From Amphiscolops sp. MND2022 (taxonomy: Eukaryota), in the NCBI GenBank assembly GCA_964187785.1, contig OZ076409.1, positions 14,572,001 through 14,636,000 on the forward strand: DNA of 64,000 nucleotides, read 5' to 3'. The notes under the pieces were generated by a model. The model did no database searches. It worked only from the letters and a program-made list of their open reading frames with translations, and was not told the DNA's origin. This document shows positions 5,483 to 43,962 of the stretch, piece by piece (position 1 is the stretch's first letter; every line of letters starts with the position of its first letter). Both the position numbers and the translations under genes were made by a program.

Positions 5483-5676
5483 TGAAGTAACTTGGAGAAA
5501 CAAGATGATAAATACAGTGAATTAAAAAGCTAGAGCATAAGTATCAAGCTGATCTGTATTGTAGCTATTTTCGTGTCTTGATGATATACGCATTAACATT
5601 ACATGACATCATAAAAGTGGCAGGTAGTTCAATGTTCACTTTAATTGGATTGTTCATTTTGCCATTTCATGCCACA
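5483..5676 (-). repeat. 3' LTR of element 1
   Basis: Direct repeat of 11207-11400 with 4 substitutions seen by eye; tgaagtaa...gccaca on the plus strand. Confidence 0.95.
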
Positions 5677-5689
5677 TTCCCCTTCTTCC
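5677..5689 (-). other. Polypurine tract of element 1
   Basis: GGAAGAAGGGGAA on the minus strand, directly abutting the 3' LTR. Confidence 0.85.
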
Positions 5690-5807
5690 GGGATCTCCTA
5701 AGGGAGCCATTGTTGTCGTGGGTTGTCTTTCTTGATTCGTGGAAATGGGGTAAACGGGAATCGAGCTGGAGTGGTGAAAATGTAGGCGTCTCCTAAACGT
5801 CAAAGAT

Positions 5808-8800: not shown

Positions 8801-10277
8801 CGAAGTGCGCTAGGCATGGGGCCTCTGTGATCTCTTTCTTCAGCTTTTCAAAGTCTTCGTCTATCTCGGGTGTCCATTCCCATTTAGTGTCTTTTCTCAA
8901 GAGTTTCCCCATTTCGTCGGTTTTCTTCGATAGATTGTTAATGAACTTTGACAAGTGCTGTATTGATCCCAGGAACGACTTCAGTTCTTTAACGTTTTTC
9001 GAGGCTTCTAGTTTAGTTATTGCTTCCGTTTTGTCCTTGATTGATTTAACGCCATTTTGGTTGATGTAGTAGCCGAGCCAGGTTAATTCCTTTTTGAATA
9101 ATTCTGTTTTCTTATCGCTTGCTCGATAACCGGCGTCTTGTAGTTTTGACAAAACTTCTCGCAATTCTTTTTCATGGTTTTCAATGTCGCCGTTAGTCAC
9201 GCATATGATGTCGTCTAGCCAGACCGGTGTTTTGAATTCCAACACGGAGTCGATATGTTCTTGACATACCGTAGGGATGTCGGATAAGCCGTAGAAACCT
9301 TTCTTGAACCGGTAATGTCCGGTGAATTCTCCCCCAATGATGGAGAATACGCTGTGTCTTGCGGCTTTTTTCGACAATTTTGCTTGCCCGTATGCGTAAT
9401 CCAGATCGCTTTTGGACATCCAAATATCCCCATTTCCTTTGGTAATTTTGGCGGAAATTTTGCTGATCAATTCTTCCATGTTCGGCATCGCAGCTTTTCT
9501 TTTTATACATGCGTCGTTCAGTTTTCGTGAATCCAGAGCTATTTTGACTGATTTGTCCTTTTTGATGGTGATAACTGCGGGTGATACGAAGCAATTTTCA
9601 GATGTTCTGTCAGCCTTCTCCAGATGTCCTTTGTCTATTAGTTTTTCTAATTCTTCACGGACAATTTTTTGGAAATGAATAGGGACAGGCCGTCCCTTCT
9701 GTTGGATTGGCTTGACGTCTTTTTTCGACTGAATATCGATGGTAAGGTCTTTGATAGTGTGGTTGTTTTTGAATAGATCTTCGTATTCGTTGATGATTCT
9801 TTTTGTTCTTTCATCTTCTGTCACATGACGAATAACATTTGTTTTCTTGATGCCTTGTAATCCGATTTCCAATTTATCAAGCCAGTCTAAGCCCAATAGT
9901 GGTTGAGTATTTTTGTTTTCTGTTATTAAGATTGGTAGTATCTCTCTGCTTTTTTCTGTTTTCACTTCAACCATGGCTTCCCCCTTGAATTTTATTGGAT
10001 TCTTGTTTACGTCCACAAATGTTTTTGTTGTTTTCTTCACTTCGGTCAAATCAATAACTGGCGGGATAATTGTCACTGGAGAGCCGGTATCAATGATGAA
10101 TTCTATTGGCTGGCCGTGGACCAATAGGATAGTTTCGTAGAAGTCAACTCGGTTAATACCGTTTACGGATTGAATGTGGTCCACTTCCGGCCATGGTTCG
10201 GTGTTACTGTCCGATGAAACCGCTTCGACTATCCGGCTTACGGTCTTGGATTTGCAAACCTTGGCAAAGTGTCCCAT
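5808..10277 (-). pseudogene. pol: pol of element 1 (protease, RT, RNase H, unknown insert, integrase), disrupted
   Basis: Motifs: FIIDTGS protease, WLDD RT, TTDACNTGLGA RNase H, HHGH..CPSC and LDFAGP/TDNG/VER integrase, PRRSER tail. Disruptions: TAA at 8076-8078 and frameshifts near 7890 and 6500. Confidence 0.9.
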
Positions 10278-11171
10278 CTTTTTGCAATTGTTGCATTGTG
10301 CTCTCCGTGCCGGATATGTTCCATGGACCAGTTTGGCTTTCCGCAGAAGCGGCAGTTTTTGTTCGATAATTTCCTTTTGTCGTTGAATTGTGTCCTCCGC
10401 TTCCGTGATTGGTTCGTATGTCCAATTAGTTCGGTGCTTGTTGAACTACTTGTGGAATCTTTTTTGGCTTTTTTGGTTTTGGGTTTTTTATCACCGTACT
10501 TTCTGTTGTAATTGTCAAGTTCTATGGTCTCCAATACCAATTGTATTTTCAGAGGGCCCTTTATAAATTTGTCCCGAGCTCGTTTGTCTTTAATTGTGGC
10601 TGCAAACTTGTACGTGATGATTTCTTCTGCCGTTATATTCCCAAAGTCACATTTTCTCTCGATATCCACGAGCCTCTTCCAATATTCATCTAAAATCTCG
10701 TTATCATCTTGTTTCATATTGAAAAATTGTGCCCTGCTGTGGAAGACGTTTCTTACCGGGAGAAATGTTTTTTTTTTGAATAATGTCAGTAGTTCCGGCA
10801 ATTTGACACCTTTTATTTCTCGGCCCCATTGTCCTCTCATGATTTCATGTTTGGCTTTTGGGCCTAGAGCCCAGATAACGTCACCTTTTATGTGGTATAC
10901 CGTGTGGGGGTCCATGTATTCTACTCCTTCATCGGTAATTTCGTCCAAATTTCGGTTGTAGGTCAAAAGGATGTATTCCGAAATTTGCTCCTACCACATC
11001 TTAGGGTTGGCTTTTGCAAGGTCGGTTTCTCTATCAGATAAGATAGGAATCTTGTACTTGCTTTTTTTCCGCTCTTTCTGACATCGTTTGATTGTTGATT
11101 GTCCGTGTTGTCTGTTCCGAAGACATCGGTCTGTCCTCCGTGGAGTTGAGGTCAGTATTGTTATTATCCAT
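10238..11171 (-). pseudogene. gag: gag of element 1, disrupted
   Basis: SRAQFFNMKQ...E Gag motif. CRFC...H and C-NNC-KKMGH-FAKVC knuckles are split by a frameshift near 10315. An in-frame TAG at 10991-10993 replaces a probable Trp. Confidence 0.85.
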
Positions 11172-11192
11172 TGTTTTTCTTTCTGTTCAAGA

Positions 11193-11206
11193 TGCTGACT
11201 GCGCCA
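11193..11206 (-). other. PBS of element 1, tRNA-Ser type
   Basis: TGGCGCAGTCAGCA follows the 5' LTR directly. It is complementary to the invertebrate tRNA-Ser 3' end (...TGCTGACTGCG-CCA), recalled from memory. Confidence 0.8.
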
Positions 11207-11400
11207 TGAAGTAACTTGGAGAAACAAGGGGATAAATACAGTGAATTAAAAAGCTAGAGCATAAGTATCAAGCTGATCTGTATTGTAGCTATTTTCGTGT
11301 CTAGATGATATACGCATTAACATTACATGACATCACAAAAGTGGCAGGTAGTTCAATGTTCACTTTAATTGGATTGTTCATTTTGCCATTTCATGCCACA
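11207..11400 (-). repeat. 5' LTR of element 1
   Basis: Direct repeat of 5483-5676, adjacent to the PBS. Confidence 0.95.
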
Positions 11401-11681
11401 GCCCCATGGATTATCATCCATGATTTTGACCCCTGATTCATCCATGATGAGCCATGTTGAAAAATTCGTTCAAAGTCAAAAATTTTCTCTTACCGTGTCA
11501 GTTTTTGTCTCTTTTGTCTTTTTTCTGAGCCTCAGAATCTGAGGGTTACCTTAATGGCCCGGGTAGCATTAAGGACGCTTTTCGGCACCGCGTTTCCTGA
11601 AGCCGCTGAGATAGGTAGGATTTTCGGGATTTTTTCGGGGGTATTTTGGGTAATTTTTCTATTCAAGAAGTACATATGGTC

Positions 11682-18396: not shown

Positions 18397-18655
18397 GCTT
18401 TATACAGTTGTTATATAAATTTCGTTGAAATGTTCAACAGAAAAAAATTCAGAAAAATTGGTTAAATCTCCATCATGCATCTGTCTTAAAGTTGATTCAA
18501 AATTGGACCAACACAAATTCAATCACTAATTACCAATTTCGAATCCAAATGTGATAATTTAAAGAAACGAACTGAATTTTAAATGTCAATCAAGATAATG
18601 ACCTTCAAGAATTATTTTTTATCAAGATCTGATGAACATAATTTTTTAACGAGAG

Positions 18656-21600
18656 TGTAAGATTTTTAGTTTTCCAGTAGCTTTAACTATTTGTTGAGAA
18701 TAGCTCCACTACAACTCAATTAAACCCGTAGGTACCATGCACGAGACAAGGACTGGCTGAGTATCTACATAAATTTTTATTAACTCCGAAGAAGAGACGA
18801 ATCAACTTAATCGAAGGCGGTGGGGGTAAGTGTGACAAGGAAATCACGATCTTTACAACTTTGCTATTTTTCCCTCTTTCAGGGGTTTGTCTCGCTACTC
18901 TTGGACTGTTTAAAATTATCTTTTCGCTGATGAAAAGAAGCAGGTTGAACTTTAATTACTATACATCAAATAAATAAGTCGAGTAATAGACACAAATACA
19001 ATTTCACATCCACGAATAATAGAATGAATAATATGATAACATCGATAGTAGCGGAGAATATTACTGATTATATTAGCAGGCATATTAAGAGGCATATAAC
19101 ACAAGAGAACAGTAAACAAGAATTTCAGCAAGGTCAAGTTTTTGTATCCGTAAGGATGGGGGTGATATCGGAGATATCGGAAGAATCAACTCGCCGCAAA
19201 ATCTCTATCGGTCTTGGAGTGAAACAATAATCCGTGTATTATCAGCCCACTTAGGCTTTTACGATAGGCCAACAGTCCATCCTATTCCCGGGTCGAAATC
19301 CAAATAGCGACGAGCGGGGTAGCAACAAATCAGGCAACTTCAGGTCGTTAAGCTGAAGGCACGGGCTAACCGGCTGGTCCCAATAAATCGGCAATTCGAG
19401 AATCCGGCGTCTGATGCGGGAAGCTATCGGACGCAAAGCAGCAAACCGTTCTCTAGATTTAAACTCACTTTGTGCGTCGCTAAAATGGCGCACACTTCGG
19501 CCTAAGTTACTTTTTCGGCAGTTTAGTCATATCATTATTCATAGTTTATCATCTTTCCTTTTTCGGGTTCTGACTAAGTGTTGAGCAATACAGTTTTTTC
19601 CTACTTCGGTACTGAAAGTTCATCAGAAGTACATTTTCTCAGCACGAGTCGGTCCTAGTTCCACCCCCTTGTCAATCATGACTGATGGTTTTACTTCGTT
19701 TTCAATAGAATTTAAGGGGTGGTGCTACTGACTCAGTGTTTCCCACTTTTGTAAGCACGACTTGAATTTCGGCTTACTGATTGACATTTGCACTTTTTGC
19801 CAGGTCTCTTTTTCTCACGCGGTTCCTGACAACTCTCTTCAACTAAAAATGGCTGAAGGAAACAATTTTCTACAATTTACAATGACCTAAAAGGCGATTT
19901 CAATTCATATCAAAAAAAGTCGATTTTCGTGTTACAACTTCTAAGGGCAAAAACAAGGTGTTCCGATCACGGGGGGCAAAAACCAAGTACACCATTTGAA
20001 AGTACAATTCAAGGGCTACAAAAGCTTATTTCATAGTTTTCTTTCTATTTCAACTCCTTCACAGTGAAAAACGCCTTTAAAGTTTGGTAGACAAAAATCA
20101 CCCATCGGTTTTCACGCAAATCTCAACTTTGGAGTGCTAGTACTCAGTCAATTTGAAAGATACAGGCTGGGGGCTTATATACATCGTTAGCCCAAGCCAT
20201 TAGGAGTATTTTGCACTTTAGATGAGGTCTCTATCTTTTCTCAACAAAATTTGATAGTACTTTTTCTGAAAGTAGTCATTTTCCCGATTTTTATGTCTGG
20301 ACTTTCAACTTTGGAGGCCAATATCTCGAAACCAGGGCATTTTTCGGAAAAACGCTTCTGCTAAACGCTGTGCGCCTGGGTCTTGTGCGTCTACCCTGAA
20401 AGTTTCAGCTCGATATCGCCCAAAACGTGCGGGGGGGGGGAGTTAGCATTTTGGTAGGTCGACATCCCTATCGGCAGAGAGAAATCACAACTTTAAATTC
20501 TTTGGGGTTCTTCGCTAGCGCACCGCAGCACTCTATTTATTATTCTATTCACTCCTCCACTTTAATTCTCAAGTACGCTGTGAAGGGGGCGGCTATTGTG
20601 CGCTTACACGTTGAGTACTAAGCGATAACATGCGAAAAACGGCTTTTTAGGCCATTTTAGGGCCGTTTTTAACGTTTGCTGGCTCAGTTCTCAAAAACTA
20701 CTGAATATTATTTATTTTCCAATTAACACAAGTTAGGGCATCCATTTATCTTTAATTTAAGCCATATCCGAACATTTTCTGACCACTGTAGCGATCACAC
20801 GAAATTTTTAAACGAAACTAAATTTTGGAAAATCGTCAAAATTTTAAATGCACTTATTTTCAAAGCTTCCCCCCGATAGGTTCCCGGGGTCGCACAACGC
20901 TCATATTCTCAACTTAAGCTCTCCTTTGGATGGGCTTTTGAATGCTGAAAACCGTTTGTTGCTATCTTTTTTCATCTTCGAGAAATCGGGTTTTGATTTT
21001 TAATTTCTATTAAGAGGGGGGATTAATTCAAAGTGTGCGGCGGCCGTTTTCTTATTAGCTACGCGTACAGCCACTCACAGCGCGTTCTAATTTTCATTCC
21101 TTTCGCTTTCTGACACGCTTAGCTGAGTTGCTTTCTATGCTGTTCACGCACACAGCGGAGTTTTCACTCTCGCTTACCCTCAAACACATGTATTAACATA
21201 GCAATTTGGCTAAATTTCTATTCACAGTATTTTATGACTTCTAATGCTTTTTCTGTGGAAATTCGTTACTGAAAAGTTCTTAAATGTTTACTCAACACGT
21301 AGTCAGGTCGAAAAGGAGCATTTTGGTGGTTTAATTTTTCTTATATTCGCAATAGGTATCGAAAAAATCAATGTTAAAGTTTCGTTCCGATTAGAATTTT
21401 CTTACATAGGTTTAGGTGGTGGCGGCCGTCTCACTGCATTAATACGTTGCGCGGTCGCTTCATAGCATAAGAATGGTTATTTTAGTTGTCCGCGAGACTA
21501 AAGACAATATTATTGACATTAAACAATAGTGTGAGGTACTTGAGGTACTTATTGTAATCTTTACTTTTATACGATATCACCCCGTAAAATCTACCTTGCT

Positions 21601-21656
21601 GATGAACTAAAATTTAATAAACACCAAATCATGAGCGAAAAGTCAAAAATCCTACA
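18656..21656 (-). repeat. 3' LTR of element 2 (3001 bp)
   Basis: Direct repeat of 29502-32502 at a constant offset of 10846; tgtaag...cctaca on the plus strand. Confidence 0.97.
18776..18781 (-). promoter_or_regulatory. Candidate polyadenylation signal AATAAA in the 3' LTR
   Basis: AATAAA on the element strand ~120 nt from the LTR end. Position is plausible but unconfirmed. Confidence 0.4.
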
Positions 21657-21668
21657 TTCCCCCCCACT
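21657..21668 (-). other. Polypurine tract of element 2
   Basis: AAGTGGGGGGGAA-like purine run on the minus strand abutting the 3' LTR. Confidence 0.85.
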
Positions 21669-23196
21669 TGGACTACTACTCTCCTGAGTAGTTGGTTTAT
21701 TTAAATTTTATTCCCTTAGTAGGAGCGTTCTTATTCGTCAATTCGTAGTCCAGTCAGGTTGTAATGTAGCCTTGTTTCATCAACTTAATCTCTTTTATTT
21801 TGTAAACAAGTGCTTGAAATACAATGATAACAATATAAAATCACTCACCCTCTATTAACAATCCTCTTAATTTAAAGACAAAATCACTCTATTCCTTAAA
21901 ATACATTAAATTCATGAAAAATTTTCATTCTTTCTCACAATTTTCATCTTTTTCAATCCAATTTAAGATTTTGGAAATGAAGTGTGGTCAATTTTAAAAC
22001 AATCTCTTTTCTGTTATAACTAAGTTCTTTACTGACTGGATTTCTTAGTTCATTCTCCTAAGTTTTTATTATTTAATTATTTACTTTCTGTCCAAGCGAG
22101 GAAAATATAGTTTTCGAGCTTTTCTTTGGGGCAAATAAATACAGGGGGGGTTTTAAGGTGCGTGGATTTATTCTGGGTACAATTTATCATTGTGAAAAGG
22201 TTCATCTCACGTGTAGGGTTCTGTACTAGCGCTGATAGGCTTCATCCACCCAAAATTAGCATTCGGATCCTCTCAGGACACATTGTCGACTTGTTGACAA
22301 GGGGAGTGTTGAACTACGTCGACGGCAACGTTGCTGAAGTCGAAACACACTTCTCTCTCCGAGATCAGCCCAGTTGTTGGTTGTTCTTTCGGTAGGCATA
22401 TATAACATTCCAAACAATATTAACACACCCAAAATTGTGATACATTACTGAAGAAGAATACTTTCACTTTTCTGAATAGTAGTCGAAGAGAAGCAAACTA
22501 CTTCGCTGAATTTACCTGAGGCAGGTTGCAGAGTCAGTACAACGGAATAAACTTGCAATCCCCCTTAGCAAATCTTTCGTGTCTGAAACTGTATACGACT
22601 GGAACTCGAATATTTTCAGGAAGGGGGGATAGTCTCTCTTCTGGATCTTCTTCAGATAACATACCGAGACTTTGTTGGCGATATTGTTTTGACATGTCAT
22701 TTCTGCGATTTCGTAGTTACGAAAGGTCATTCGCGCGAACCTAGGCGGACAATCCTCATCGCTGGTTCCAAACGAGTTCTTACTTTTCACGCCGGTACCC
22801 GATTACGTCAACACAAATACTACATTTACATAATCTTCCGACTATACTAGCGAGTCGAATGATTTAATCACGGGAAAAAAATTCCGGACAACACAACACA
22901 TAGACATATAGAGGTTAAATACGGTTTTTTTTTGAAAGTCCTTCAAATTGATTGTAGGGACGATGACTACAATTTTTCAATTCTAGTAACTGAGGTAATT
23001 AGGTTAAGGCAAAACTAAATGAAGGAGAGCCGGTAGCGACACGGATGACACTACTTTTCGAACTCATCACCTCATGATTGACAGTCCGAGCTTACAAGTA
23101 ATTCGATTAGTCATGCTCGCGAACGGCTAAACGAATGATGAGCTTCACTACTTCGGATGATTCAACTCACCTGACCATCACCCGAAGACATTAATG

Positions 23197-26100
23197 TTAT
23201 TTTGGCTTTACCACGTACTCGTCTATGCCGAAGCGCACTGGCGGTCGACGATTCCGTGTCGTTTCGATTATCAGCGAATCTGATCGGTCACTTTCGCTGT
23301 CTTCCTCATCTGGAGGGGGCGGAGTATTTCTATTGTCGTTTATTTCTTCATAAACAGGAAATGAAGACTCCTCTGACGGTGCGGGGACGTCTATATACAA
23401 CGGGCAATTAGTCAGAGTAGTCTCTTCGTCGTTTTCGGCGCTTATCACGCGGGGAACGTCATGAAATGACACGTGCGGCCGGTTTTTATTGGTTTGAATT
23501 TCCGCCGAAGTAGGGCGGAACACATGATACGGTCTATTTTCGGTCTCTTGGTCGGATGAATCGGATTCATCTGCGACTTCTTCATAACTCGGAAGCGTTT
23601 TTGTCGCCACTCGTTCGGATCGTTTCGGGAGGGATTCGCCAAGATACGGTTTAAGACGATTAAAATGGATATTCTGCCACTTTTCCGGGCAACCTGGCTT
23701 GCAAATCTGATAGTTCACTTCACTGGTCTGACTCAATACTTCGTATGGACCGTGCCAAGGGAGATGGAACTTTCGGGATTTCGCTTTGTGTGGCTCGAAT
23801 AACCACACTCGGTCTCCTGTTTTAAAACTTTTTCCATGGACCTTTTTCTGATAATAATCCTTCTGACGACGTTGTTCTTTCCCCATAGTCAGTTGCGCAT
23901 GACTATGTACTTCGAAAAGTTTATCACTCAACTCGGCTCCTACCTCGCCTAATTCTAAACGGGGGTCGCCAGGAGGTTTCGGATAGAACAAGTCGATCGG
24001 ATATTGTGCTTCTCTCCCGTACAACATCGAAAACGGGGTCGTACCGAGGGTCTTATGTACGGTGGTATTGTACACAAAATTTACGTGGGGCAAGTAGAGA
24101 TCCCACTCCTGCGGTTTTTCGGCGCAATACTTAGAAATAGTATCGGCAATCACTCTATTGAATCTTTCTACTTGACCATTTCCTTGGGGATGATACGGAG
24201 AAATCCTAGTTTTATCGATCATGAAAACTTGGCAAATATCTTTCATTACTTCGCTGTTGAAGTTAGTTCCTTGATCCGTATGTAAAGTATCGGGAGCTCC
24301 AAATTTCAAAATCCACTCTTCGACTAAAGTCGTGGCCACCGTCTTAGCCGTCATGTCTTTCAAAGGAACGGCAACCGCATACTTTGTATACAAATCGGAT
24401 ATAACTAAAATGTACCGCGCCTGTGACTTTTTCGCTAGCGTTACGGGTCCCAAGATATCTGCTGCAACAATACGAAACGGCGCCTTTGCTTCGATTGTTT
24501 GCAAATGAGCTTTTCGACCTTTTCCCGCCGTTGATCTAGCCGCGCAACGCGTGCATTTTGCAATATACTTTTCTACACTTGACCTGAGACCAGGCCACCA
24601 AAATCTCTGTTTAATCCTTGATAACGTTTTCTCGGCTGCAAAATGACCTCCGCTAAGAGGGGAGTCATGTAACTGATGTAACACTTCGGCTCTCATAGTC
24701 GAAGGAACGACTGCCTGCCATATTTCACGTTCACGATTGCTAGGTTTCCATTTTCGATAAAGGACTCGATTGGCCAGCGCTAGCTGATCCCAATTACTCC
24801 AAAGTTCTAACGCCTCTGGACAACTCCATTCTAGTGCTACTTCTCTGGGGATGGGGTTGGGCCCTAAATCTTCCAATGTACCATCTATCCGAATTCCACG
24901 TCTAACCATTTCACGGAATAGTAATCCCGTACTACGATCCATTCTCTGACCATACGCTAGGTCGCTATCCGATCTAGTCCATGAGATATGCCCCCCCACT
25001 TGCTCTGATACTAACATTTCTTCAGGGGTAACGACGGAACAGGCGGAATCTACACTTGATGAACGCGGGGTACCTCGTCTTGCCGAAGTCGAAGGGTACA
25101 ATTGCTCTTGGTCTCTCGGTGTATACACGGAGATCGTAAAATACGAATCTTGAAACACAACCTCTAGACAAATAGCTACATTCACCCACTCCAATTCGTC
25201 ATCGACGCAACCTATTCTAGGCATTGCAAGTTTGGAAATTCCATGGGAGCTAGCATGTTCTTTCACTCTCAATAGACTTTCTTTTAGTACATCGTATTTG
25301 GCAACTTCTCCTTTACAATGCTTGGTGATCAATATATACACATAACGTCCTTTTTCAACATCTTGGTACACTAGAAAACCTCCAACACGATTTACCGACT
25401 CTGCGAGAGGTGGTAAATGGGAATACTTTTTTACGAACGATTTCATGGGAGTAGTGGCTACTCTCATGTCGGCAGATACACACAAAACTAAGGAATCGGG
25501 GGATTCGAAAAAATCCCCTTCTCGATAACGGACTACCTCTCTAGGTGGGTGAGAAATTTGCATTTTCAAATGCCGAGCTACATCCTCTGAGTTTTCCAAT
25601 TTCTCACGAGCTTTGGTTCGGGCGGCTCGAAGATCGCGTTCGGCTTCAAACAAAGCACTATCAAATTCGGTGAATTCGGGAATCGGTCCCCTTAACGCAT
25701 CTTCTTCGCCGGGCAACCATTGGGGTACGTCATTCGGTCGTCGACTAAGACCGTCCGCATTACAATGTTTATCACCTGGACGATGTACTATTTGATAGTC
25801 ATACTCCTGAAGTTTTTGAACCATTCGAAAAGTCATTCCATCCGCATTTTGCCTAAACAGCCATTGAAGACTTGCATGATCCGTGCGGATAATGCATTTG
25901 GATCCGTAAATGTACGGTCTGAACCACTGGACGGCTTGAACTACACCTAGCGCTTCTCTTTTGGTTGTTGCATAATTTACCTCCGTTTTAGTTAGAACTC
26001 GCGACTCAAAGGCAATTGGATACTCTATCCCATCGATCACTTGAGACAAAACTGCGCCGAGCGCCGTATCACTAGCATCGGTATCAATAATGAACGGAAG

Positions 26101-28020
26101 TTCAAAATTTGGAAATGCCAAAATTGGAGCTTCTAATAATCTTTTCTTCAGCGTTCGGAACGCCTTGTCATGTTCTTCGGTCCATGTGAATTTTAATCCT
26201 TTGCTCGTCAACAGATAAAGTGGTCGCGCCACTTCCGCGAAATTTTGGACAAACTTCCGATAATAGTTGCAGAAGGCAACAAATGAGCGAACTCCGGTGA
26301 CGTCGGTCGGAGGCTCCCATTCGCGTACTGCCGCTAACTTTTTCGGATCCGGTTGGATCCCTTCCTTGTTAATCACATGACCTAGATAGTGGACCTCGGT
26401 GCGGAATAAGTTGCATTTCTTCGGTTTAAGACGTAAACCGGCTTTGCGTAAAACTATAAACACCTTTTCCAAATGCTCCAAATGTTCTTCTGGAGTTTTG
26501 CTAAACGTTAGCACATCATCTAGGAAAATGAGCACATGTTTATACAGATCTTCTTTGAAAATGTCGTTCATGTTCCTTTGGAAAGTTGGCGGGGCGTTCG
26601 TTAAGCCAAACGGCATCTTCAAACACTCATATAACCCTCCATCCGGAGTACAAAATGCCGTTTTGTGCCGGTCTTCGGCCGCGACTGGAATCTGCCAATA
26701 GCCACTTGCTAAATCGAGAGACGAGAAGACTCCCGCCCCTTGCAGTGCATCAATCGTTTGACCGATCCGGGGCAACGGATACGCGTCCTTTACGGTGAGG
26801 TCGTTCAACTTTCGATAATCTATACACATTCGGTTTGAGCCATCTTTCTTAGGTACCATTACTATGGGACTGCTGAAAGGACTTTTACTCGGTACGATCA
26901 CTCCTTTCTCAAGCATCTCGCGAATTTCTTCACGAACGGCTTCTAATTTATGCGGAGCAATTTTGTAGGGCGAAATTTTGAACGGTTTCGCATCGCCTAT
27001 GTCTATGCGGTGTTCTACTCCTACAGCGGTTCCCAACGGGTCTGAAGGCAGTGAAAACACATCTCTGTAATCACGAATCAAATCTCGCAATTTTTCCTTT
27101 ATTTCGGCGTTCTCGAGTCCAGGGGTGGCTAAATTTAAAATTTCGTCAACTTCCTGTTCGAGTTTTTCGTTTGTTTCGGAGGCCGCTGATACTGTGTCAG
27201 GACCGGGTACCGTTTCGCAAACAAATGCGTCATCTTCCGGCGGGGGAACATGACCGCTTAGGACTTGCATGGGTACTTTGATGATGAAACCATCATCTTT
27301 GGGGATCGTTAGTTTCTGTTCGACTAAGTCAGTCGAGCATTGATTTTCCATCATGAATTTTAAGCCAATCATGATCTCAGGGTAGAGATCTTCCACAACC
27401 ACAAATTCATCGGAAGCGACGCACGTTCCGATTTTAACTTGTGCTTTTACGATACCTTTGGTAGGCATCTCGTTAGCTATTGGGCCTGTTAAACGACTGG
27501 GATTGGGGGCTATTGGATTACCAATAGTCTTAGCCAATTCCAAACTCATCAAACTTCTACTCGCACCAGTGTCTATCATGGCCCAACACCGTAGGCTTTC
27601 TACTTCATAGGGGATTAAAAGCGTGGCCCCTGGAATGTATTGACTATGGGTCAGTTTTCTCGATTTTACCTCATCAGACCGGGCCTGATTTGGAAATTCG
27701 GGCTCTTTCTTGGACAAAATTTGCACAGAGCCAGGCTCAGCTTGTTTATCCTCAAAAAGATTTTGTATTGGGGGACTATTTACAACAAGGGTATGGGATT
27801 CTTTTGGGAAGAAGCCTCCCGGGCCAAACTCGTCACACATTTGCTTCCAAGTTTCGGGGTCGATCCGCCTACTGCGATTGCGCTGTCGCAAACGGCTATC
27901 ATTACTCCTAGACCTAGAACGAACACGCTGACTTGTTTGCGGAAAATTTGTAGCAGCGGGGGAAGGGATGGAATCCCAAGCGCGAGTAGAGCCTGCTACT
28001 GCATACTCGGCTGTCGGTAG
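23197..28020 (-). CDS. pol: Pol polyprotein: protease, RT, RNase H, TARG1-like macrodomain, integrase (HHCC, DDE, GPY/F); probably made as Gag-Pol by -1 frameshift
   Basis: AMIDTGAS; LDLASGYWQI, MPFGL, FLDD; DTDASDTALGAVL; HDSPLSGGH...CTRC; ADILGP, HTDQG, VERFNR; WHGPY. The frame stays open upstream of the listed TTG up to a TAA at 28030-28032. Confidence 0.95.
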   Translation of the reverse strand, partial: LPTAEYAVAGSTRAWDSIPSPAATNFPQTSQRVRSRSRSNDSRLRQRNRSRRIDPETWKQMCDEFGPGGFFPKESHTLVVNSPPIQNLFEDKQAEPGSVQILSKKEPEFPNQARSDEVKSRKLTHSQYIPGATLLIPYEVESLRCWAMIDTGASRSLMSLELAKTIGNPIAPNPSRLTGPIANEMPTKGIVKAQVKIGTCVASDEFVVVEDLYPEIMIGLKFMMENQCSTDLVEQKLTIPKDDGFIIKVPMQVLSGHVPPPEDDAFVCETVPGPDTVSAASETNEKLEQEVDEILNLATPGLENAEIKEKLRDLIRDYRDVFSLPSDPLGTAVGVEHRIDIGDAKPFKISPYKIAPHKLEAVREEIREMLEKGVIVPSKSPFSSPIVMVPKKDGSNRMCIDYRKLNDLTVKDAYPLPRIGQTIDALQGAGVFSSLDLASGYWQIPVAAEDRHKTAFCTPDGGLYECLKMPFGLTNAPPTFQRNMNDIFKEDLYKHVLIFLDDVLTFSKTPEEHLEHLEKVFIVLRKAGLRLKPKKCNLFRTEVHYLGHVINKEGIQPDPKKLAAVREWEPPTDVTGVRSFVAFCNYYRKFVQNFAEVARPLYLLTSKGLKFTWTEEHDKAFRTLKKRLLEAPILAFPNFELPFIIDTDASDTALGAVLSQVIDGIEYPIAFESRVLTKTEVNYATTKREALGVVQAVQWFRPYIYGSKCIIRTDHASLQWLFRQNADGMTFRMVQKLQEYDYQIVHRPGDKHCNADGLSRRPNDVPQWLPGEEDALRGPIPEFTEFDSALFEAERDLRAARTKAREKLENSEDVARHLKMQISHPPREVVRYREGDFFESPDSLVLCVSADMRVATTPMKSFVKKYSHLPPLAESVNRVGGFLVYQDVEKGRYVYILITKHCKGEVAKYDVLKESLLRVKEHASSHGISKLAMPRIGCVDDELEWVNVAICLEVVFQDSYFTISVYTPRDQEQLYPSTSARRGTPRSSSVDSACSVVTPEEMLVSEQVGGHISWTRSDSDLAYGQRMDRSTGLLFREMVRRGIRIDGTLEDLGPNPIPREVALEWSCPEALELWSNWDQLALANRVLYRKWKPSNREREIWQAVVPSTMRAEVLHQLHDSPLSGGHFAAEKTLSRIKQRFWWPGLRSSVEKYIAKCTRCAARSTAGKGRKAHLQTIEAKAPFRIVAADILGPVTLAKKSQARYILVISDLYTKYAVAVPLKDMTAKTVATTLVEEWILKFGAPDTLHTDQGTNFNSEVMKDICQVFMIDKTRISPYHPQGNGQVERFNRVIADTISKYCAEKPQEWDLYLPHVNFVYNTTVHKTLGTTPFSMLYGREAQYPIDLFYPKPPGDPRLELGEVGAELSDKLFEVHSHAQLTMGKEQRRQKDYYQKKVHGKSFKTGDRVWLFEPHKAKSRKFHLPWHGPYEVLSQTSEVNYQICKPGCPEKWQNIHFNRLKPYLGESLPKRSERVATKTLPSYEEVADESDSSDQETENRPYHVFRPTSAEIQTNKNRPHVSFHDVPRVISAENDEETTLTNCPLYIDVPAPSEESSFPVYEEINDNRNTPPPPDEEDSESDRSDSLIIETTRNRRPPVRFGIDEYVVKPK
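25120..25539 (-). other. Macrodomain of the TARG1/OARD1 (Poa1p-like) class inside Pol
   Basis: YREGDFF..DSLVLCVSAD..GRYVYILITK..Y..LKESL..KEH...GISKLAMPRIGCVDD.LEW.NV...LEVVF...ISVY aligns end to end with human OARD1 as recalled (YVKGDLF..DSLAHCISED..GRYIYYLITK..LSMPRIGCGLDRLQWENV..IEEVF..ITVY). Confidence 0.9.
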
Positions 28021-29390
28021 TTTAAAGAATTAGGCTGCGGAAGACTTGGACATTGCTTAGCGTAGTGACCTATCGCCTTACACTTAAAACATTCCGCTTC
28101 TTCGGGGGGAGGGTGCGAAACATTTAGCTGACCCGACGATCCTGCCCTGTTTAGAGGCGCGCGATAGTTAGGATTGAGAGGGGCTTGAACATGGGGAGCT
28201 TGCCAACTCTGAGGCTGCCCACCAACCGGCTTTTGCGAACTTCCTAACGCTCCTACGATCGCAGATGACATGTCTTTCATACCCTGCATTAGGATTTCGT
28301 TTTGTCTGGTCATCATTTCGACTTGTTTCGAGGAACTTTGTTCTAAGTTTTTCGTTATTTGATCGGTTTGCTTGGATATTTGCTGACAGATGGAATTTTC
28401 AAATCGATCAAAGCGACTTGCCACATTGGTTAGTGATGTTTGAATGGCGACGAATTTTTCTTCTATTTGACTATTATTCGAATAGCCAGCTCTCACTAGA
28501 TCGGGATCCTCATATTCGTCATACGAATAGCGCAATTTATCAAGTTTGCGCTCTCTTTTTGATTCATGAGTCTTGTGGATTATTTCGAGTTCCTGTGCTC
28601 GTTGCAAAGTTTCCCCGAAATCACGGTCACGCTCGTCTTCATACAAACTAAGTTGTATTCGCGAATCAAAAAGCCCTTCAATAAATTGGTCTCTCATATC
28701 GCGTTCTCTTTCCCGGAGCGATTTTTCAGGAAAGGCTATATCAGCGAGTTGACGTACTCTTCTCGAGTAGTCCCTTAGGTCTTCATTTTCCCACTGTTTA
28801 ACTGCTTTAAATTCCGACCGTGTAGCTCGCTGGCTGCGATATTGCTGCATTTTGGGTTTCAAAATTTCAAGGAGTTCATCAAAACGTGGGGGATAAGAAC
28901 CGGGTTCTTTTTCAATATATCTTTTGGGGACAGTTTCAAATTCTTCAATAGCCCACGATGTTAAACAAGTAGGTATTGCTGCAATTTTTTGACTATCATT
29001 CCACCCATTTGCTTTAGCAACTGCTTTGAAGTGTTTTACCCAGCTTTCCCAGCGGTTGTAATCTTTGCCGGGGAACTTTTCTGGTTTTATTGGCGACTTT
29101 TCATATAAAGGTTTTTGTCTTCTCTTGGATTCATTTTCAAAAACCATGGAGTCGTCAGAATCTAATTCTTCTTCAAATTTGAATCTTTTCAGTTCTCTTT
29201 CCATTTCTTTCATTCGTTTATAGGCGGTTTGTTTACGCTCCTTTGCCGCGTCGGCCAATCCTACGAAGGAAATTTTAGTGGACTTACTGAGGAGTGGCTT
29301 ACTACCACCTGTGACGGGAGTATGGGTGCCGTTGGGGTCTTCTTGGGTGACGGGGGAAATCTGCTGATCGTTGTCGTCGTCTCCAGACAT
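27996..29390 (-). CDS. gag: Gag (464 aa) with a C-terminal CCHC zinc knuckle
   Basis: KPEKFPG..WESW..HF..VA.ANGW capsid start; F..VKQ..NE motif; CFKCKAIGHYAKQC knuckle; begins ~90 nt after the PBS. Confidence 0.93.
   Translation of the reverse strand: MSGDDDNDQQISPVTQEDPNGTHTPVTGGSKPLLSKSTKISFVGLADAAKERKQTAYKRMKEMERELKRFKFEEELDSDDSMVFENESKRRQKPLYEKSPIKPEKFPGKDYNRWESWVKHFKAVAKANGWNDSQKIAAIPTCLTSWAIEEFETVPKRYIEKEPGSYPPRFDELLEILKPKMQQYRSQRATRSEFKAVKQWENEDLRDYSRRVRQLADIAFPEKSLRERERDMRDQFIEGLFDSRIQLSLYEDERDRDFGETLQRAQELEIIHKTHESKRERKLDKLRYSYDEYEDPDLVRAGYSNNSQIEEKFVAIQTSLTNVASRFDRFENSICQQISKQTDQITKNLEQSSSKQVEMMTRQNEILMQGMKDMSSAIVGALGSSQKPVGGQPQSWQAPHVQAPLNPNYRAPLNRAGSSGQLNVSHPPPEEAECFKCKAIGHYAKQCPSLPQPNSLNYRQPSMQ
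28020..28026 (-). promoter_or_regulatory. -1 ribosomal frameshift slippery heptamer U UUA AAC
   Basis: In the gag frame, inside the 34-nt gag/pol overlap; pol is in the -1 frame relative to gag. Confidence 0.85.
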
Positions 29391-29482
29391 CGTTGAAAGG
29401 GTTCAGCAACTCAGAAGGGGTGAAGGGAAGGCAAGGGAAAGAAGTAAGCAAAGAAAGAGGAAATAACAAAGACGCAAAGAAA

Positions 29483-29500
29483 GCCCACCCAGGAGCGCCA
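29483..29500 (-). other. PBS of element 2, tRNA-Asn-like
   Basis: TGGCGCTCCTGGGTGGGC, 1 nt after the 5' LTR. It resembles the complement of the metazoan tRNA-Asn 3' end (...GCCCACCCAGGGACG-CCA), recalled from memory. Confidence 0.75.
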
Positions 29501-29501
29501 A

Positions 29502-32500
29502 TGTAAGATTTTTAGTTTTCCAGTAGCTTTAACTATTTGTTGAGAATAGCTCCACTACAACTCAATTAAACCCGTAGGTACCATGCACGAGACAAGGACT
29601 GGCTGAGTATCTACATAAATTTTTATTAACTCCGAAGAAGAGACGAATCAACTTAATCGAAGGCGGTGGGGGTAAGTGTGACAAGGAAATCACGATCTTT
29701 ACAACTTTGCTATTTTTCCCTCTTTCAGGGGTTTGTCTCGCTACTCTTGGACTGTTTAAAATTATCTTTTCGCTGATGAAAAGAAGCAGGTTGAACTTTA
29801 ATTACTATACATCAAATAAATAAGTCGAGTAATAGACACAAATACAATTTCACATCCACGAATAATAGAATGAATAATATGATAACATCGATAGTAGCGG
29901 AGAATATTACTGATTATATTAGCAGGCATATTAAGAGGCATATAACACAAGAGAACAGTAAACAAGAATTTCAGCAAGGTCAAGTTTTTGTATCCGTAAG
30001 GATGGGGGTGATATCGGAGATATCGGAAGAATCAACTCGCCGCAAAATCTCTATCGGTCTTGGAGTGAAACAATAATCCGTGTATTATCAGCCCACTTAG
30101 GCTTTTACGATAGGCCAACAGTCCATCCTATTCCCGGGTCGAAATCCAAATAGCGACGAGCGGGGTAGCAACAAATCAGGCAACTTCAGGTCGTTAAGCT
30201 GAAGGCACGGGCTAACCGGCTGGTCCCAATAAATCGGCAATTCGAGAATCCGGCGTCTGATGCGGGAAGCTATCGGACGCAAAGCAGCAAACCGTTCTCT
30301 AGATTTAAACTCACTTTGTGCGTCGCTAAAATGGCGCACACTTCGGCCTAAGTTACTTTTTCGGCAGTTTAGTCATATCATTATTCATAGTTTATCATCT
30401 TTCCTTTTTCGGGTTCTGACTAAGTGTTGAGCAATACAGTTTTTTCCTACTTCGGTACTGAAAGTTCATCAGAAGTACATTTTCTCAGCACGAGTCGGTC
30501 CTAGTTCCACCCCCTTGTCAATCATGACTGATGGTTTTACTTCGTTTTCAATAGAATTTAAGGGGTGGTGCTACTGACTCAGTGTTTCCCACTTTTGTAA
30601 GCACGACTTGAATTTCGGCTTACTGATTGACATTTGCACTTTTTGCCAGGTCTCTTTTTCTCACGCGGTTCCTGACAACTCTCTTCAACTAAAAATGGCT
30701 GAAGGAAACAATTTTCTACAATTTACAATGACCTAAAAGGCGATTTCAATTCATATCAAAAAAAGTCGATTTTCGTGTTACAACTTCTAAGGGCAAAAAC
30801 AAGGTGTTCCGATCACGGGGGGCAAAAACCAAGTACACCATTTGAAAGTACAATTCAAGGGCTACAAAAGCTTATTCCATAGTTTTCTTTCTATTTCAAC
30901 TCCTTCACAGTGAAAAACGCCTTTAAAGTTTGGTAGACAAAAATCACCCATCGGTTTTCACGCAAATCTCAACTTTGGAGTGCTAGTACTCAGTCAATTT
31001 GAAAGATACAGGCTGGGGGCTTATATACATCGTTAGCCCAAGCCATTAGGAGTATTTTGCACTTTAGATGAGGTCTCTATCTTTTCTCAACAAAATTTGA
31101 TAGTACTTTTTCTGAAAGTAGTCATTTTCCCGATTTTTATGTCTGGACTTTCAACTTTGGAGGCCAATATCTCGAAACCAGGGCATTTTTCGGAAAAACG
31201 CTTCTGCTAAACGCTGTGCGCCTGGGTCTTGTGCGTCTACCCTGAAAGTTTCAGCTCGATATCGCCCAAAACGTGCGGGGGGGGGGAGTTAGCATTTTGG
31301 TAGGTCGACATCCCTATCGGCAGAGAGAAATCACAACTTTAAATTCTTTGGGGTTCTTCGCTAGCGCACCGCAGCACTCTATTTATTATTCTATTCACTC
31401 CTCCACTTTAATTCTCAAGTACGCTGTGAAGGGGGCGGCTATTGTGCGCTTACACGTTGAGTACTAAGCGATAACATGCGAAAAACGGCTTTTTAGGCCA
31501 TTTTAGGGCCGTTTTTAACGTTTGCTGGCTCAGTTCTCAAAAACTACTGAATATTATTTATTTTCCAATTAACACAAGTTAGGGCATCCATTTATCTTTA
31601 ATTTAAGCCATATCCGAACATTTTCTGACCACTGTAGCGATCACACGAAATTTTTAAACGAAACTAAATTTTGGAAAATCGTCAAAATTTTAAATGCACT
31701 TATTTTCAAAGCTTCCCCCCGATAGGTTCCCGGGGTCGCACAACGCTCATATTCTCAACTTAAGCTCTCCTTTGGATGGGCTTTTGAATGCTGAAAACCG
31801 TTTGTTGCTATCTTTTTTCATCTTCGAGAAATCGGGTTTTGATTTTTAATTTCTATTAAGAGGGGGGATTAATTCAAAGTGTGCGGCGGCCGTTTTCTTA
31901 TTAGCTACGCGTACAGCCACTCACAGCGCGTTCTAATTTTCATTCCTTTCGCTTTCTGACACGCTTAGCTGAGTTGCTTTCTATGCTGTTCACGCACACA
32001 GCGGAGTTTTCACTCTCGCTTACCCTCAAACACATGTATTAACATAGCAATTTGGCTAAATTTCTATTCACAGTATTTTATGACTTCTAATGCTTTTTCT
32101 GTGGAAATTCGTTACTGAAAAGTTCTTAAATGTTTACTCAACACGTAGTCAGGTCGAAAAGGAGCATTTTGGTGGTTTAATTTTTCTTATATTCGCAATA
32201 GGTATCGAAAAAATCAATGTTAAAGTTTCGTTCCGATTAGAATTTTCTTACATAGGTTTAGGTGGTGGCGGCCGTCTCACTGCATTAATACGTTGCGCGG
32301 TCGCTTCATAGCATAAGAATGGTTATTTTAGTTGTCCGCGAGACTAAAGACAATATTATTGACATTAAACAATAGTGTGAGGTACTTGAGGTACTTATTG
32401 TAATCTTTACTTTTATACGATATCACCCCGTAAAATCTACCTTGCTGATGAACTAAAATTTAATAAACACCAAATCATGAGCGAAAAGTCAAAAATCCTA

Positions 32501-32502
32501 CA
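29502..32502 (-). repeat. 5' LTR of element 2 (3001 bp)
   Basis: Direct repeat of 18656-21656, adjacent to the PBS. Confidence 0.97.
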
Positions 32503-33591
32503 GAGAGATTTTTGTTTGGTCCTCATTTTTAATTCTAATTTTCATTCGATGTGAAACTTCCGCAACAACAGAGCAGCATCAAAAATTGAAAATTCAAACT
32601 AATTTAAACGATCTTTTGTTTGGAAAATCTTGATTTCCAGAATTACTCCTCGGATGTTTTGAAGAATAATATCAATTTTTTACTCATCAGACAAAAGCAT
32701 AACAAAGTGGTTTATTTTTACATGACATGATATGAAAAATATATGTTAGTATGGGCAAACGTCTGTCACAGAAAGCATCAGACTCCGTTGCGATGATCAA
32801 TTTTGCAACTTTTTTGCTCTAATCAATAGCACCAAGATATCTTATTTTGTCTCTTCCCTCTAACTTTTCACTTCAAATCAATCAAGGCACAGACAAACAT
32901 TTTCCGTCGGGAGCTCTTCGCTGATATCACCATCAAATGTCTCCCGTGTATCATGTCCACTACAGTCCTATGAATGTCGCACCGCGTGAAATTTTATGGA
33001 ATCCATCTCGAGTGATTTTTCAAGAAGCTTTCCTTCCTTTTAAAGGTCCCCTGTGCGAATGCTATGTTTGACTTTATCACATGTGGTCCCATTAGTCATC
33101 AAAAGAATCTCCCCAAAGAATCGCCTCCCAGAAACATTTTCCACCATTTGCGCAATATAAGGTTCACGCATTATACCCATGTATCTAGGGTGAAAAGATT
33201 GGCCTTTCGTACCCAGACAGTTTCAAAAGGGCGGGTCTTCAAAAGGATCGAATTCTTCGAAAACTCATGAAACGCCTTAGATGTCTGATTGATTATATAA
33301 CACTATCATATATCCTTATATATAGGATAAGATCTAAAGTTCCCCTCCTGTACGACGGTGATTTCTACGATCTTATTCCAGAGACTTTGAATTTTTACAG
33401 AAAATCAATGTCTCCTGAAAAAGCGCTAAAAGACCCGGCAGTTGAATTATTCTAGAATTGTAGCTCTTTTTCAAACTCTTTATCGAAACTTTGACATCTT
33501 CGAATTTTTTCATCTTACTCAGATTCGATCTTGAGATGATGATAAATCTTAGTGGAATCATTGAAGAAGAGCTCAAAAAGAAAAAATCTTT

Positions 33592-40323: not shown

Positions 40324-42542
40324 TAAAGAAACACGAAACCAACTAACAATTTATTGGTTCAACAATTGTGAAACTTTAATGCTATGATTGATAAGCTCAG
40401 AAATGTAAAATTGTGTGAATAGGGTTCTTCTGGCGTTGAGAGATTTTTAGATTCAGTCCTTTTTTGGATGCTTCCATCTTTTCGCGCTGTCTACGCCAAC
40501 TGACGCAAAAACAGGATTATTCAATAAAAAATTCTTTTGAAGTTCTGAACAAAAGACTGGAGACCTTCAGTCAAAGATAAATTCTATTGACTCTGTCTAA
40601 TCTGTTAATCAGATTGGGGCCCTTCTTTGATGTTCTTTTCCAGAGCATGCAACTTTCATGTCAAATCTGAAAAAAAAGTTTCTGCAAATTAAATTCCTCC
40701 AGCATTCCTGCGTTTTGGATACTATTTCGTTGAAAAACTAATTTACCATGCTTCTATATAATTAATTCAATTTCGCGTTTCAGAAAACTGTGAAAAGGGT
40801 AGTAACTTTATTTGCTATGGTACTCTCATGCAATGGAACAATAAGTTCAGCCCGTGATTTGTGATGAAAAGCAAGGACATAATGAAAAAATTGATGATAA
40901 TGATAAAGAAGTCTAGATTAAGCTGATTTTAAAACGATATCATTTTCCAATTTTCTTTTTTTGAATGGATCTCTTAGAGTGAAATAGCGGTCTAAACCCA
41001 AAGAAGATTTGGTCCACACAGAAGATACAAAATAAAAAATGGAAAAATCATAAAAATTTGAGATCATTCAATATGGATCCAAAAAAGCTGACGACTTGAA
41101 AACAGAGTAACTCCAACAATAACAAACTCCTCAAAAACGCGAAAATTTTCCAATTGAGACTAAATTTTTTGACGCTTTTGAACTTTTGGAATGAAGTTAT
41201 GAAACTGAAGCAATAGTGTACCAGTCTGATGGAAATTTTGGTTACTTCGGGAAAAATTTTTGGACGCTACCAAATTTTTGAAACCAATATTACTTGGTGG
41301 TTACGTAGTGTAATGTTAATCGTTGTAATTTCATCTCAGATACACCCAATAGACATTTTCTGCTCAGCAATAACGTCAAAAGGGCTCAAAGATAGAATCA
41401 CCTCAATCTAATGTAACTAAAGGAAAACGAGAGCTGGGAGCAACTGAATACCCCAACAATAGAGTCTTGCGAAGACAAGCCTAGAGTGATACATGTGTTG
41501 TTCGTTCTTGATTACCTTAACAACTAGCGAATGTATGAGACTTAAATCATGCAACCTAAATCAGGCATCCAAAGTATGTCCTCAAGGTACCCGACACCCT
41601 GTCTACATGTTTGAAGAGTCTTATCCACAATCAGTTTGTGATGGAAAAGTCCATTGGAAAAGCATGCATCCTTTTTCATCCTCAATTTAATACTGTTCAG
41701 GGGTATTGCTTGATGATTTATGATTACCTGCAAAGAATCTATTCCGTAGTTGAAACTGGTATGAGGGAAACTCGTCGAATACAACTAGTCGAAACTAAAT
41801 GGTGGAAAAGTAACCAACTCCTCGAATAACTACAGATTGCTATCTAGCTGTTAGTCATCCCCCAGAAACAGTTTCTTCTTGTAAATTTTATTGTAAAGTG
41901 CTAAGTATGGGTTATTTTCCTCGAAATAATCCAGTTTGAAGCATAATTAAGCTCCTTTAAATGTATAATCGCTTGAAAAGTCTTACTTTTATACTTAACA
42001 GGTGTTACTTTTGTTCATAATACCGTATCATTCCAAAAAATTAAGCTCTTATCCTGACTGTGAAATTCAATTTCAACTGTAGATGAAGAACACAAACACA
42101 CAAATTTGACGAATTCATGAGATTATCGAATAGCAAAACACTTCACCTATAGAAACACAAGAAACCAATCTTTCATCGATTCCACAGCAAGTAAATTCTA
42201 ACTTAATTGAATTCGGAATTTTTTTACGGGGCCTGCGTCCCGCTTCATTAAAACATTCATTCACCCAACAAAACTTTGTACTTATCAAAACTGCATGTAT
42301 TTCAAAAAAGTTCGAATGCGAACATGATATGAAATGATTACACAATTTTCTACGAAATTTAGAAAAGCAAAAAATTGTCACCGGATGGGATCAATGCTGA
42401 AATTTAATGTCCCGCAATCGTATGCCTCAATCATTCAAACGGTTATCTATTTGTCAGCATTTAAAAGTTTTGGCAGAACTTTTTTAGTTTCTACGAGGGT
42501 TCCAAATCTTGGGCTCTCAAAGTTAAACAAAGGCTAGTTTTT

Positions 42543-43962
42543 TAGTCGGCGCCTTTTCCCTTAAGGAAAAAGCCCGACTCTTACAGTGAGTAGTTTTTAG
42601 TCGGCGCCTTTTCCCTTAAGGAAAAAAGCCCGACTCTTACAGTGAGTAGTTTTTTTTTTGTTTTTTTCAGTTGACAATCTCACTCTGAGTGGTCCACTTT
42701 TCTTACAATTCTTACAATTTTCAAAAACTTACAATTATTACTTAGCAAAATTAAAATACTGGCGCAAAAGTAGTTTTTATATCATCTAAGGGTCCCCAAA
42801 GGGTATTTTCGGCACTGTGCGACTTTTTTTCGAAAAAATTTTTATTGTTCCAAAAGGGTCCCCCCTTCGAGTTTTTTCATATTTTGCAACTGAATGTATG
42901 TTAATACATCACAAAGGGTCCCCCCTTTTACATTTTTCGGCACTATGCGACTTTTTTTGAAAGAATTTTTTTTTCAAAAATTCATGTTTTTTTCCAAAAA
43001 AATTTTTTTTGCGCTTTTTGAGCCTTAGATATGGCGCCGACTTTGGACGTTCTCGTCTTGTTTTTTTTTTCAGTTGACAATCTCACTCTGAGTGGTCCAC
43101 TTTTCTTACAATTTGTTCATCTTTCATATTTGTTCATCTTCCATCTTCGACCCAGCCGGAGTGCGTGGGTTCGATTCTCGCACTAAACCATAAATTTTTT
43201 AATGCTCCCAAAAGTACAGGTGAGACCAAAGGGCCCCCCCTTTGGGTTTTTTTCGGCACTATGCGACTTTTTTCGAAAATTTTTGAAATTTATCAAAGGG
43301 TACCCCCTTGCATTTTTTGAAATTTTCGGTTTGTAGAAAACGTTGAATGAGCCTGAATGGCCTTTTTTTGAGTTTTTCGGCATTTTGCGACTTAAAAAAT
43401 ACTTTTTTTTCGAAAAAAAATTTCAAAAATAATTTTTTTGAAAAATTTTTTTTCCAAATTTTTACAATAGTTGTTGCTTGAATATTTTTGAGCCTAAAAT
43501 ATGGCGCCGACTTGGGACGTTCCCGTCTTGTTTCTTTTTTTCGTCAGACTACAATCTCACTCTGATTGTTCCACTTTTCTTACAATAGAAACTACCAAAA
43601 CTACTAAGGCCATAAGGCCAAGTCCGGTCAGCGGAAATTAGTACAAAAGGGTCCCCTTTCATTTTTTACTTTTTCAAGGTAACCTACAAAACCGGACGGG
43701 GCTAAAGAGACCCCTCTTTCAATTTTTTCGGCACTGTGCGACTTTTTTTGCAAAAATTTTTAATGTCTCAAAAGGGCCCCTTCGAGTTTTTTGATATTTT
43801 GCAACAGAATATATGTTAATAAAGCCCTTTTACATTTTTCGGCACTATGAGACATTTTCCAAAAGAAAAAATTTTCAAAACTTTCAAGTTTCTTTTCAAA
43901 AAAAATGTTTTGCGCTTTTTGAGCCTTAGATATAGCGCCGACTTTAGACGTTCCCGTCTTGT
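42543..43962 (+). mobile_element. Array of Helentron/DINE-1-like elements: two 5' caps and three body+3'-end units
   Basis: The ~55-bp 5' cap (TAGTCGGCGCC...GCCCGACT) is duplicated. 3' ends GCGCCGACTT-GACGTTCCCGTC-TTGT occur at 43061, 43531 and 43962. Confidence 0.75.

Follow-up and report, generated by a model that had tools for sequence, protein, structure and literature searches.

A Ty3/Gypsy retrotransposon in the window (the whole 64,000-nucleotide stretch of DNA that was analysed) encodes within its Pol polyprotein, between RNase H and integrase, a macrodomain of the TARG1/OARD1 type in which the ADP-ribose pocket is remodelled. Judging from its residues, the window copy of the domain is probably not an active eraser, and it is nevertheless under purifying selection. 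Our preferred reading, in which we place moderate confidence, is that the domain is a pseudo-enzyme, retained on RT-RNase H as a module without catalytic activity.

The element and its macrodomain

The element occupies window positions 18656-32502 on the minus strand (13,847 bp) and houses the macrodomain at 25120-25539. Gag is followed by protease (PR), reverse transcriptase (RT), RNase H (RH) and integrase (IN) domains in the order of Ty3/Gypsy elements, and TG..CA long terminal repeats (LTRs), a tRNA primer site, a polypurine tract and a target-site duplication are all present. The first-pass annotation described the element as young and intact. The element is indeed young and its gag and pol frames are open: its LTRs differ at a single base in 3001 bp, and it is bounded by a GAGAG duplication. 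Its features are as follows.

29502..32502, minus strand: 5' LTR, 3001 bp, with TG...CA ends
18656..21656, minus strand: 3' LTR, with one mismatch against the 5' LTR over 3001 bp
18651..18655 and 32503-32507, no strand: 5-bp target-site duplication GAGAG, on both flanks of the element
29483..29500, minus strand: primer-binding site, 18 nt, complementary to the 3' end of tRNA-Asn(GTT)
27996..29390, minus strand: gag, 464 aa, with a CCHC zinc knuckle (open reading frame and Pfam)
28020..28026, minus strand: heptamer that we take to be of the slippery type, within the 34-nt gag/pol overlap (sequence inspection)
23197..28029, minus strand: pol open frame, 1610 codons from stop to stop; 1564 aa when counted from the TTG at 27891
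27355..27612, minus strand: aspartic protease (Pfam PF13650)
26371..26856, minus strand: reverse transcriptase core (Pfam PF00078)
25801..26184, minus strand: RNase H (Pfam PF17919/PF17917)
25120..25539, minus strand: macrodomain of the TARG1/OARD1 class whose ADP-ribose pocket is remodelled; probably a pseudo-enzyme (sequence search and predicted fold)
23647..24708, minus strand: integrase, comprising zinc finger, core and C-terminal domain (Pfam)
21657..23196, minus strand: post-pol non-coding region with the polypurine tract at its end

Pol would be reached from gag by a -1 frameshift. No Pfam match to a chromodomain was found in the window Pol, integrase included. The post-pol region (21657..23196) of the window copy holds no env-like ORF, which sets this copy apart from the env-bearing, errantivirus-like Gypsy elements; some relatives have an env-like third ORF (one of the eight sampled window-family copies that reach IN, and sister families), and the ORF3 of one relative gives a sub-threshold Baculo_F match. 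The macrodomain has at least 150 matches in the genome, and all 150 that were scored (of 1012 candidates) are 92-100% identical. A second, smaller Gypsy-type element in the window (5480-11405, minus strand) has ~200-bp LTRs that are 97% identical, split gag/pol frames and no macrodomain match. Short dispersed repeats of 70-90 nt recur with a spacing of 400-470 nt at window positions 42500-43960.

At 25120-25539 the plus strand is interrupted by stops and the minus strand is open for 140 aa, with the motifs GDFF, CVSAD, GRYVYILITK and LAMPRIGCVDDELEW encoded on the minus strand. The domain comprises residues 785-924 of the 1564-aa Pol, in frame, with RNase H before it and the integrase zinc finger after it; the proposed location is thus confirmed by the Pfam domain order PR-RT-RH-[macro]-IN. 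A sequence search of the PDB matched human OARD1/TARG1 with an E value of 3e-21 (residues 3-140, 38% identity). An AlphaFold model of the domain (pLDDT 92.8) retrieves TARG1 (4J5R) first in Foldseek, with a TM score of 0.88, and aligns with TARG1 in VIA-align with a Z score of 22.0 and an r.m.s.d. of 2.0 Å for 137 residues; the alignment supplied to AlphaFold consisted mostly of canonical TARG1 homologues, so that the model depends on the sequence match and lends no separate support to the shape of the pocket. The DarG macrodomain (5M3E/5M3I) is of the same fold class (Z of about 17) but has 18-19% identity and belongs to a bacterial antitoxin. By sequence match and model, the domain is a TARG1/OARD1-type macro fold, in agreement with the class first proposed. 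Profile and sequence searches differ on this point: in contrast to the PDB search, the Pfam Macro profile (PF01661) matches weakly (E value 0.014, 15.8 bits, under the 22-bit gathering cut-off). This is a weak argument against the class, because two intact-pocket domains of the same genome (L061 and L063) likewise fall under the cut-off. A search of the ESM Atlas returned generic macro clusters only. A chance or artefactual match was considered and ruled out by the E value, the open frame and the number of matches in the genome.

The ADP-ribose pocket

The window domain resembles human TARG1/OARD1 (C6orf130; 4J5Q/4J5R/4J5S) in fold and at the K84, D125 and S35 positions, and differs from it in lying inside a retrotransposon Pol, in its near-neutral rather than basic charge and in the replacement of H32, G41, G43, I44, G123 and L124. 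Human residue numbers follow the alignment from the PDB search, checked against the residues named in PMC6397177. The pocket segments map as follows.

25444..25458, minus strand: loop-1 segment, equivalent to human G41-A45, glycine-free and containing a proline
25321..25323, minus strand: Lys, equivalent to the catalytic K84, kept in the window family
25198..25206, minus strand: loop-3 segment, equivalent to human G123-L124-D125, here Val-Asp-Asp

The equivalents of S35, D37, T83, K84, P118 and D125 are kept in the window domain, and H32 is replaced by Leu, G41 by Ala, I44 by Pro, A45 by Met, G123 by Val and L124 by Asp; the G43 equivalent is Thr in the window domain and Ala in most family copies. 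Among 29 family copies picked by RNase H DNA similarity, independently of the macrodomain, every copy has the whole domain; the Pro (I44), Val (G123) and Asp (L124) are invariant, as are the S35, D37, K84 and D125 equivalents. According to PMC5928194, any one of G43E, I44E and G123E deprives human TARG1 of both ADP-ribose binding and catalysis, and the Ala, Thr and Val at the pocket positions here are milder changes than the Glu introduced there. At the G43 position one sister family carries Glu, which is the substitution that inactivates human TARG1 in that account (PMC5928194).

To place these replacements, 311 domains from homologue searches and genome loci were pooled into 221 clusters at 85% identity; their alignment was automatic, with a few local shifts, and the residue tallies are approximate. 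The TARG1 active-site pattern given in PMC6397177, TKx(30,35)Px[IL]GxGxD, fails for the window domain itself and is found in none of the 11 window-clade clusters (seven of them full-length), whereas 31 of the 37 retroelement-linked clusters outside the clade and 151 of the remaining 173 contain it. Glycine at the G43 equivalent occurs in 0/9 clade clusters with a residue there versus 207/210 other clusters, and the G123 equivalent is Val or Ile in 10/10 clade clusters versus Gly in 206/210 others. Across the 221-cluster set, 35 positions are conserved in the window clade and rare elsewhere, which partly reflects shared ancestry. The pocket replacements are, by these tallies, a trait of the clade. 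Neutral decay of a single copy was ruled out, as the pocket changes are common to families down to ~45% identity. We consider that the window-clade domain most likely neither binds nor removes ADP-ribose. Human TARG1 also binds RNA through a basic patch, independently of the pocket (PMC5928194); the near-neutral to acidic charge found here (net -2 for the domain, clade median -6) argues against such a function.

An active hydrolase with a remodelled pocket, which would take ADP-ribose off proteins or cDNA of the element and might have changed its specificity, would be in keeping with the retained K84, D125, S35 and D37 equivalents in the window family, with the 26 PARP-domain matches in the host genome and with the reversal of thymidine-linked ADP-ribose by TARG1 through K84, as reported in PMC8501950. 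We nevertheless judge it unlikely: both phosphate-binding loops are without glycines, H32 is Leu, and the catalytic Lys itself is replaced in two of the 11 clade clusters (Arg in L091, Ile in P0045). The suggestion that the element carries an ADP-ribose eraser or reader is thus weakened and is doubtful for the window copy: the catalytic Lys and Asp are retained, but G43, I44 and G123 of the pocket are replaced. This result corrects the expectation of an active eraser, and the suggestion fits the intact-pocket families of the same genome better than it fits the window family.

Selection on the domain and its possible role

The macrodomain is under purifying selection (dN/dS ~0.06), and the comparison across copies gave no indication of the neutral evolution that the first-pass annotation had raised. 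Comparison with three copies from the nearest sister family gives a dN/dS of 0.054-0.059 for the macrodomain (bootstrap 0.03-0.11), whereas RT/RH has 0.02-0.04 and the Pol tail has 0.38; with a dS of ~2, near saturation, these ratios are rough. In the comparison with L091, dS reaches saturation. In the window family itself, shared variants give pN/pS values of 0.16 for the macrodomain and 0.00 for RT/RH. Between families, macrodomain identity is 58-69% at an RT identity of 82-86%, and the intact-pocket macrodomains of L062 and L066 have 61% identity at an RT identity of 88%. Because the macrodomain identities match at similar RT distance, the altered domain is, on this comparison, about as constrained as the intact-pocket ones. 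The flanking linkers are constrained to about the same degree as the macrodomain (dN of 0.10-0.18 versus 0.11-0.13, with similar ratios), and for this reason selection may act on folding only.

A gag-pol-env-like family represented by L144 (G000:C1:14672450-14680050), L157 and L158 carries no macrodomain in the linker between RH and IN. A quick tree of RT-RH-IN places L144 as the sister of the window clade (SH-aLRT 100), and in the L144 Pol the pre- and post-macro linker motifs of the window element are joined directly. This family is young, with LTRs that are 99.85% identical and 14 of its 40 scored matches reaching at least 99%, so the macrodomain is dispensable in the nearest lineage. Absence from sister copies, a second concern raised at the outset, is not borne out in the window family, with 29 of 29 copies carrying the domain. 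The direct joining in L144 would suit a trapped passenger, that is, a dead domain without a role, kept since a stop, frameshift or misfold in Pol ruins RT and IN, so that clean deletion is the sole exit. The rate of change of the macrodomain, 2-4 times that of RT/RH, and the differently degenerate macrodomain of L151, an older broken lineage, point the same way. Against it, the domain is as well conserved as intact-pocket domains are at a comparable RT distance, and clade-specific motifs have been retained through saturated dS; we rate this explanation as rather unlikely, though with an appreciable chance of being correct.

In the pseudo-enzyme reading, which we prefer, an ancestor in the Gypsy lineage would have acquired a TARG1-type ADP-ribose hydrolase in the linker between RNase H and integrase, and the ligand pocket would then have been remodelled in the tRNA-Asn-primed clade that includes the window element. 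The domain would be made within Gag-Pol through the -1 frameshift and then packaged. A conserved Cys-x-Val/Thr motif, presumably a protease site, follows a variable linker rich in Ser and Thr and lies immediately ahead of the N-terminal region of integrase. Because this putative cut is downstream of the macrodomain, cleavage at the integrase N-terminus would probably leave the macrodomain on the C-terminus of RT-RNase H, where the folded domain may bind a partner without catalysing a reaction; the partner would most likely be a protein of the particle or of the host. A fold prediction of RH, linker and macrodomain together, which addressed how the macrodomain packs on RNase H, gave a pTM of 0.38 from a shallow alignment of 31 rows.

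The same placement weakens the earlier proposal that the domain reads ADP-ribose and, in the manner of a chromodomain, guides integration to ADP-ribosylated chromatin. In chromovirus-type targeting the reader is at the integrase C-terminus, whereas the window macrodomain is N-terminal to IN, upstream of the likely RT/IN cut, with no chromodomain match. Capture of chromatin readers by transposons has precedent (bioRxiv 2021.11.30.470311), and an intact macrodomain does follow integrase in L068, P0093 and P0151; a reader would, however, require precisely the pocket that is altered in the window domain, and we regard this role as very improbable.

Intact-pocket relatives, satellites and known systems

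A canonical TARG1 query found many repeat families in the genome. Among 20 loci examined, an intact-pocket domain occurs at four positions: between RH and IN in other families (L062/L066/L072), between protease and RT (L067/L073), after integrase (L068/L074) and at the end of gag-protease ORFs without RT/IN. The best genome match to canonical TARG1, L061 (4557-5501, minus strand; G000:C1:46433559), is an open frame of 315 aa that has an intact pocket and lacks retroelement domains, and is a candidate host gene. Several of the PARP-domain matches in the genome lie inside open frames of 1800-2100 aa (G000:C4:66932847, C13:32550287, C13:32384923, C8:6537011 and others), which may stem from a host expansion or from mobile elements. 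Quick macrodomain trees reject neither a grouping of the window domain with the L062/L063 domains (p-AU 0.73) nor one with L061 (p-AU 0.69), and may reflect either a single capture followed by degeneration and loss or repeated capture.

The domains at the end of gag-protease ORFs belong to non-autonomous LTR elements (L063 784-9100, L064, L065, L069 and L070; e.g. G000:C1:67847300-67857200) with a single ORF of ~834-860 aa, without RT/IN and with the pocket intact in most. Their LTRs are 96.5-99.7% identical within elements, and their macrodomain dN/dS is 0.15-0.30. The window primer site has 631 exact matches in the genome. Of the first 42 on contig C1 we sampled 40, leaving out two loci that had already been collected; the sample comprised 13 loci of the window family or close sisters, six gag-PR-macro elements, three L144-type macro-less autonomous elements, one locus of the old broken lineage (L151), 16 other non-autonomous or unassigned loci and one that is tRNA-derived. 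A tandem array of tRNA-Asn(GTT) genes with a spacing of ~198 bp starts at G000:C7:47639204 (L175), and the pattern has 386 matches genome-wide. The common primer site prompted us to consider the window family as the helper of these satellites; this was ruled out, as only ~33 nt are shared and the LTRs are not. L144 is the likely helper, because the satellites share with it 89-90% of the 2-kb LTR, 94-97% of U5 and leader, and the same polypurine tract, LTR ends and primer site.

More broadly, ADP-ribose erasing could benefit the Gypsy elements of this genome in common. Host PARPs would attack retrotransposon particles, and many lineages carry an intact TARG1; of the tRNA-Asn-primed autonomous elements, L144 would have shed the domain and the window element would have made a pseudo-enzyme of it, while the satellites would borrow RT and integrase from the L144 family and supply the eraser in trans, in a helper-satellite mutualism. 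The satellite-helper link in this scheme rests on the shared cis elements, and we think the scheme as a whole quite improbable.

Capture of host enzymes by LTR retrotransposons is a known kind of event. A Gypsy element of orchids captured an AlkB demethylase, likewise a modification eraser, which, unlike the window domain, is a separate ORF and was shown to be active (PMC9289625). The retroviral tether is likewise an enzyme domain kept in Pol after loss of catalysis, and unlike the window macrodomain originates from the RNase H of the element itself (PMC12440569). Fish epsilon-like endogenous retroviruses have macro-domain ORFs (Basta et al. 2009, as cited in PMC4977317); compared by description, these also place a macrodomain on an LTR retroelement, but as additional ORFs in Retroviridae. 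The literature searched, which did not extend to most subscription journals, supplements or Repbase, yielded no account of a TARG1-type domain in Gypsy Pol, of such a domain in pseudo-form or of satellites that carry TARG1, and the term 'macro' does not occur in the accessible text of PMC6431247, PMC9289625, PMC3248453, PMC7998251 or PMC12440569.

If Gypsy elements have repeatedly acquired a TARG1-type eraser and shifted its position, this would suggest that ADP-ribosylation is a host defence against LTR retrotransposons that has received little study. This single genome provides a natural series (intact domains at four positions, a conserved pseudo-enzyme, a clean absence and intact-domain satellites) that makes the relation between ADP-ribosylation and retrotransposons testable, and the isolated domains are small and easily assayed in parallel.

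In other organisms, matches to RT, RH or IN occur in six of 148 TARG1-homologue proteins, two of which are named records (weevil XP_076269006.1 and the snail Nucella KAL8599054.1). These two, together with the Gypsy-type Pol domains of L062, L066, L072, L067 and L068, are of the same class as the window domain, several in an RH-macro-IN arrangement, and differ from it in keeping the GxG loops; the database records are unnamed or automatically named, and the literature searched yielded no functional study of such intact-pocket domains. Other domain combinations were seen among the homologues. P0162 (residues 1178-1513) is a retroelement Pol with a macrodomain and then a Tpt1/KptA-like domain after integrase, and integrase zinc finger, chromodomain and macro families are listed together in P0275. 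In P0067, P0126, P0260 and P0270 a DNA ligase III is fused to a TARG1-type macrodomain, the named records being from copepods.
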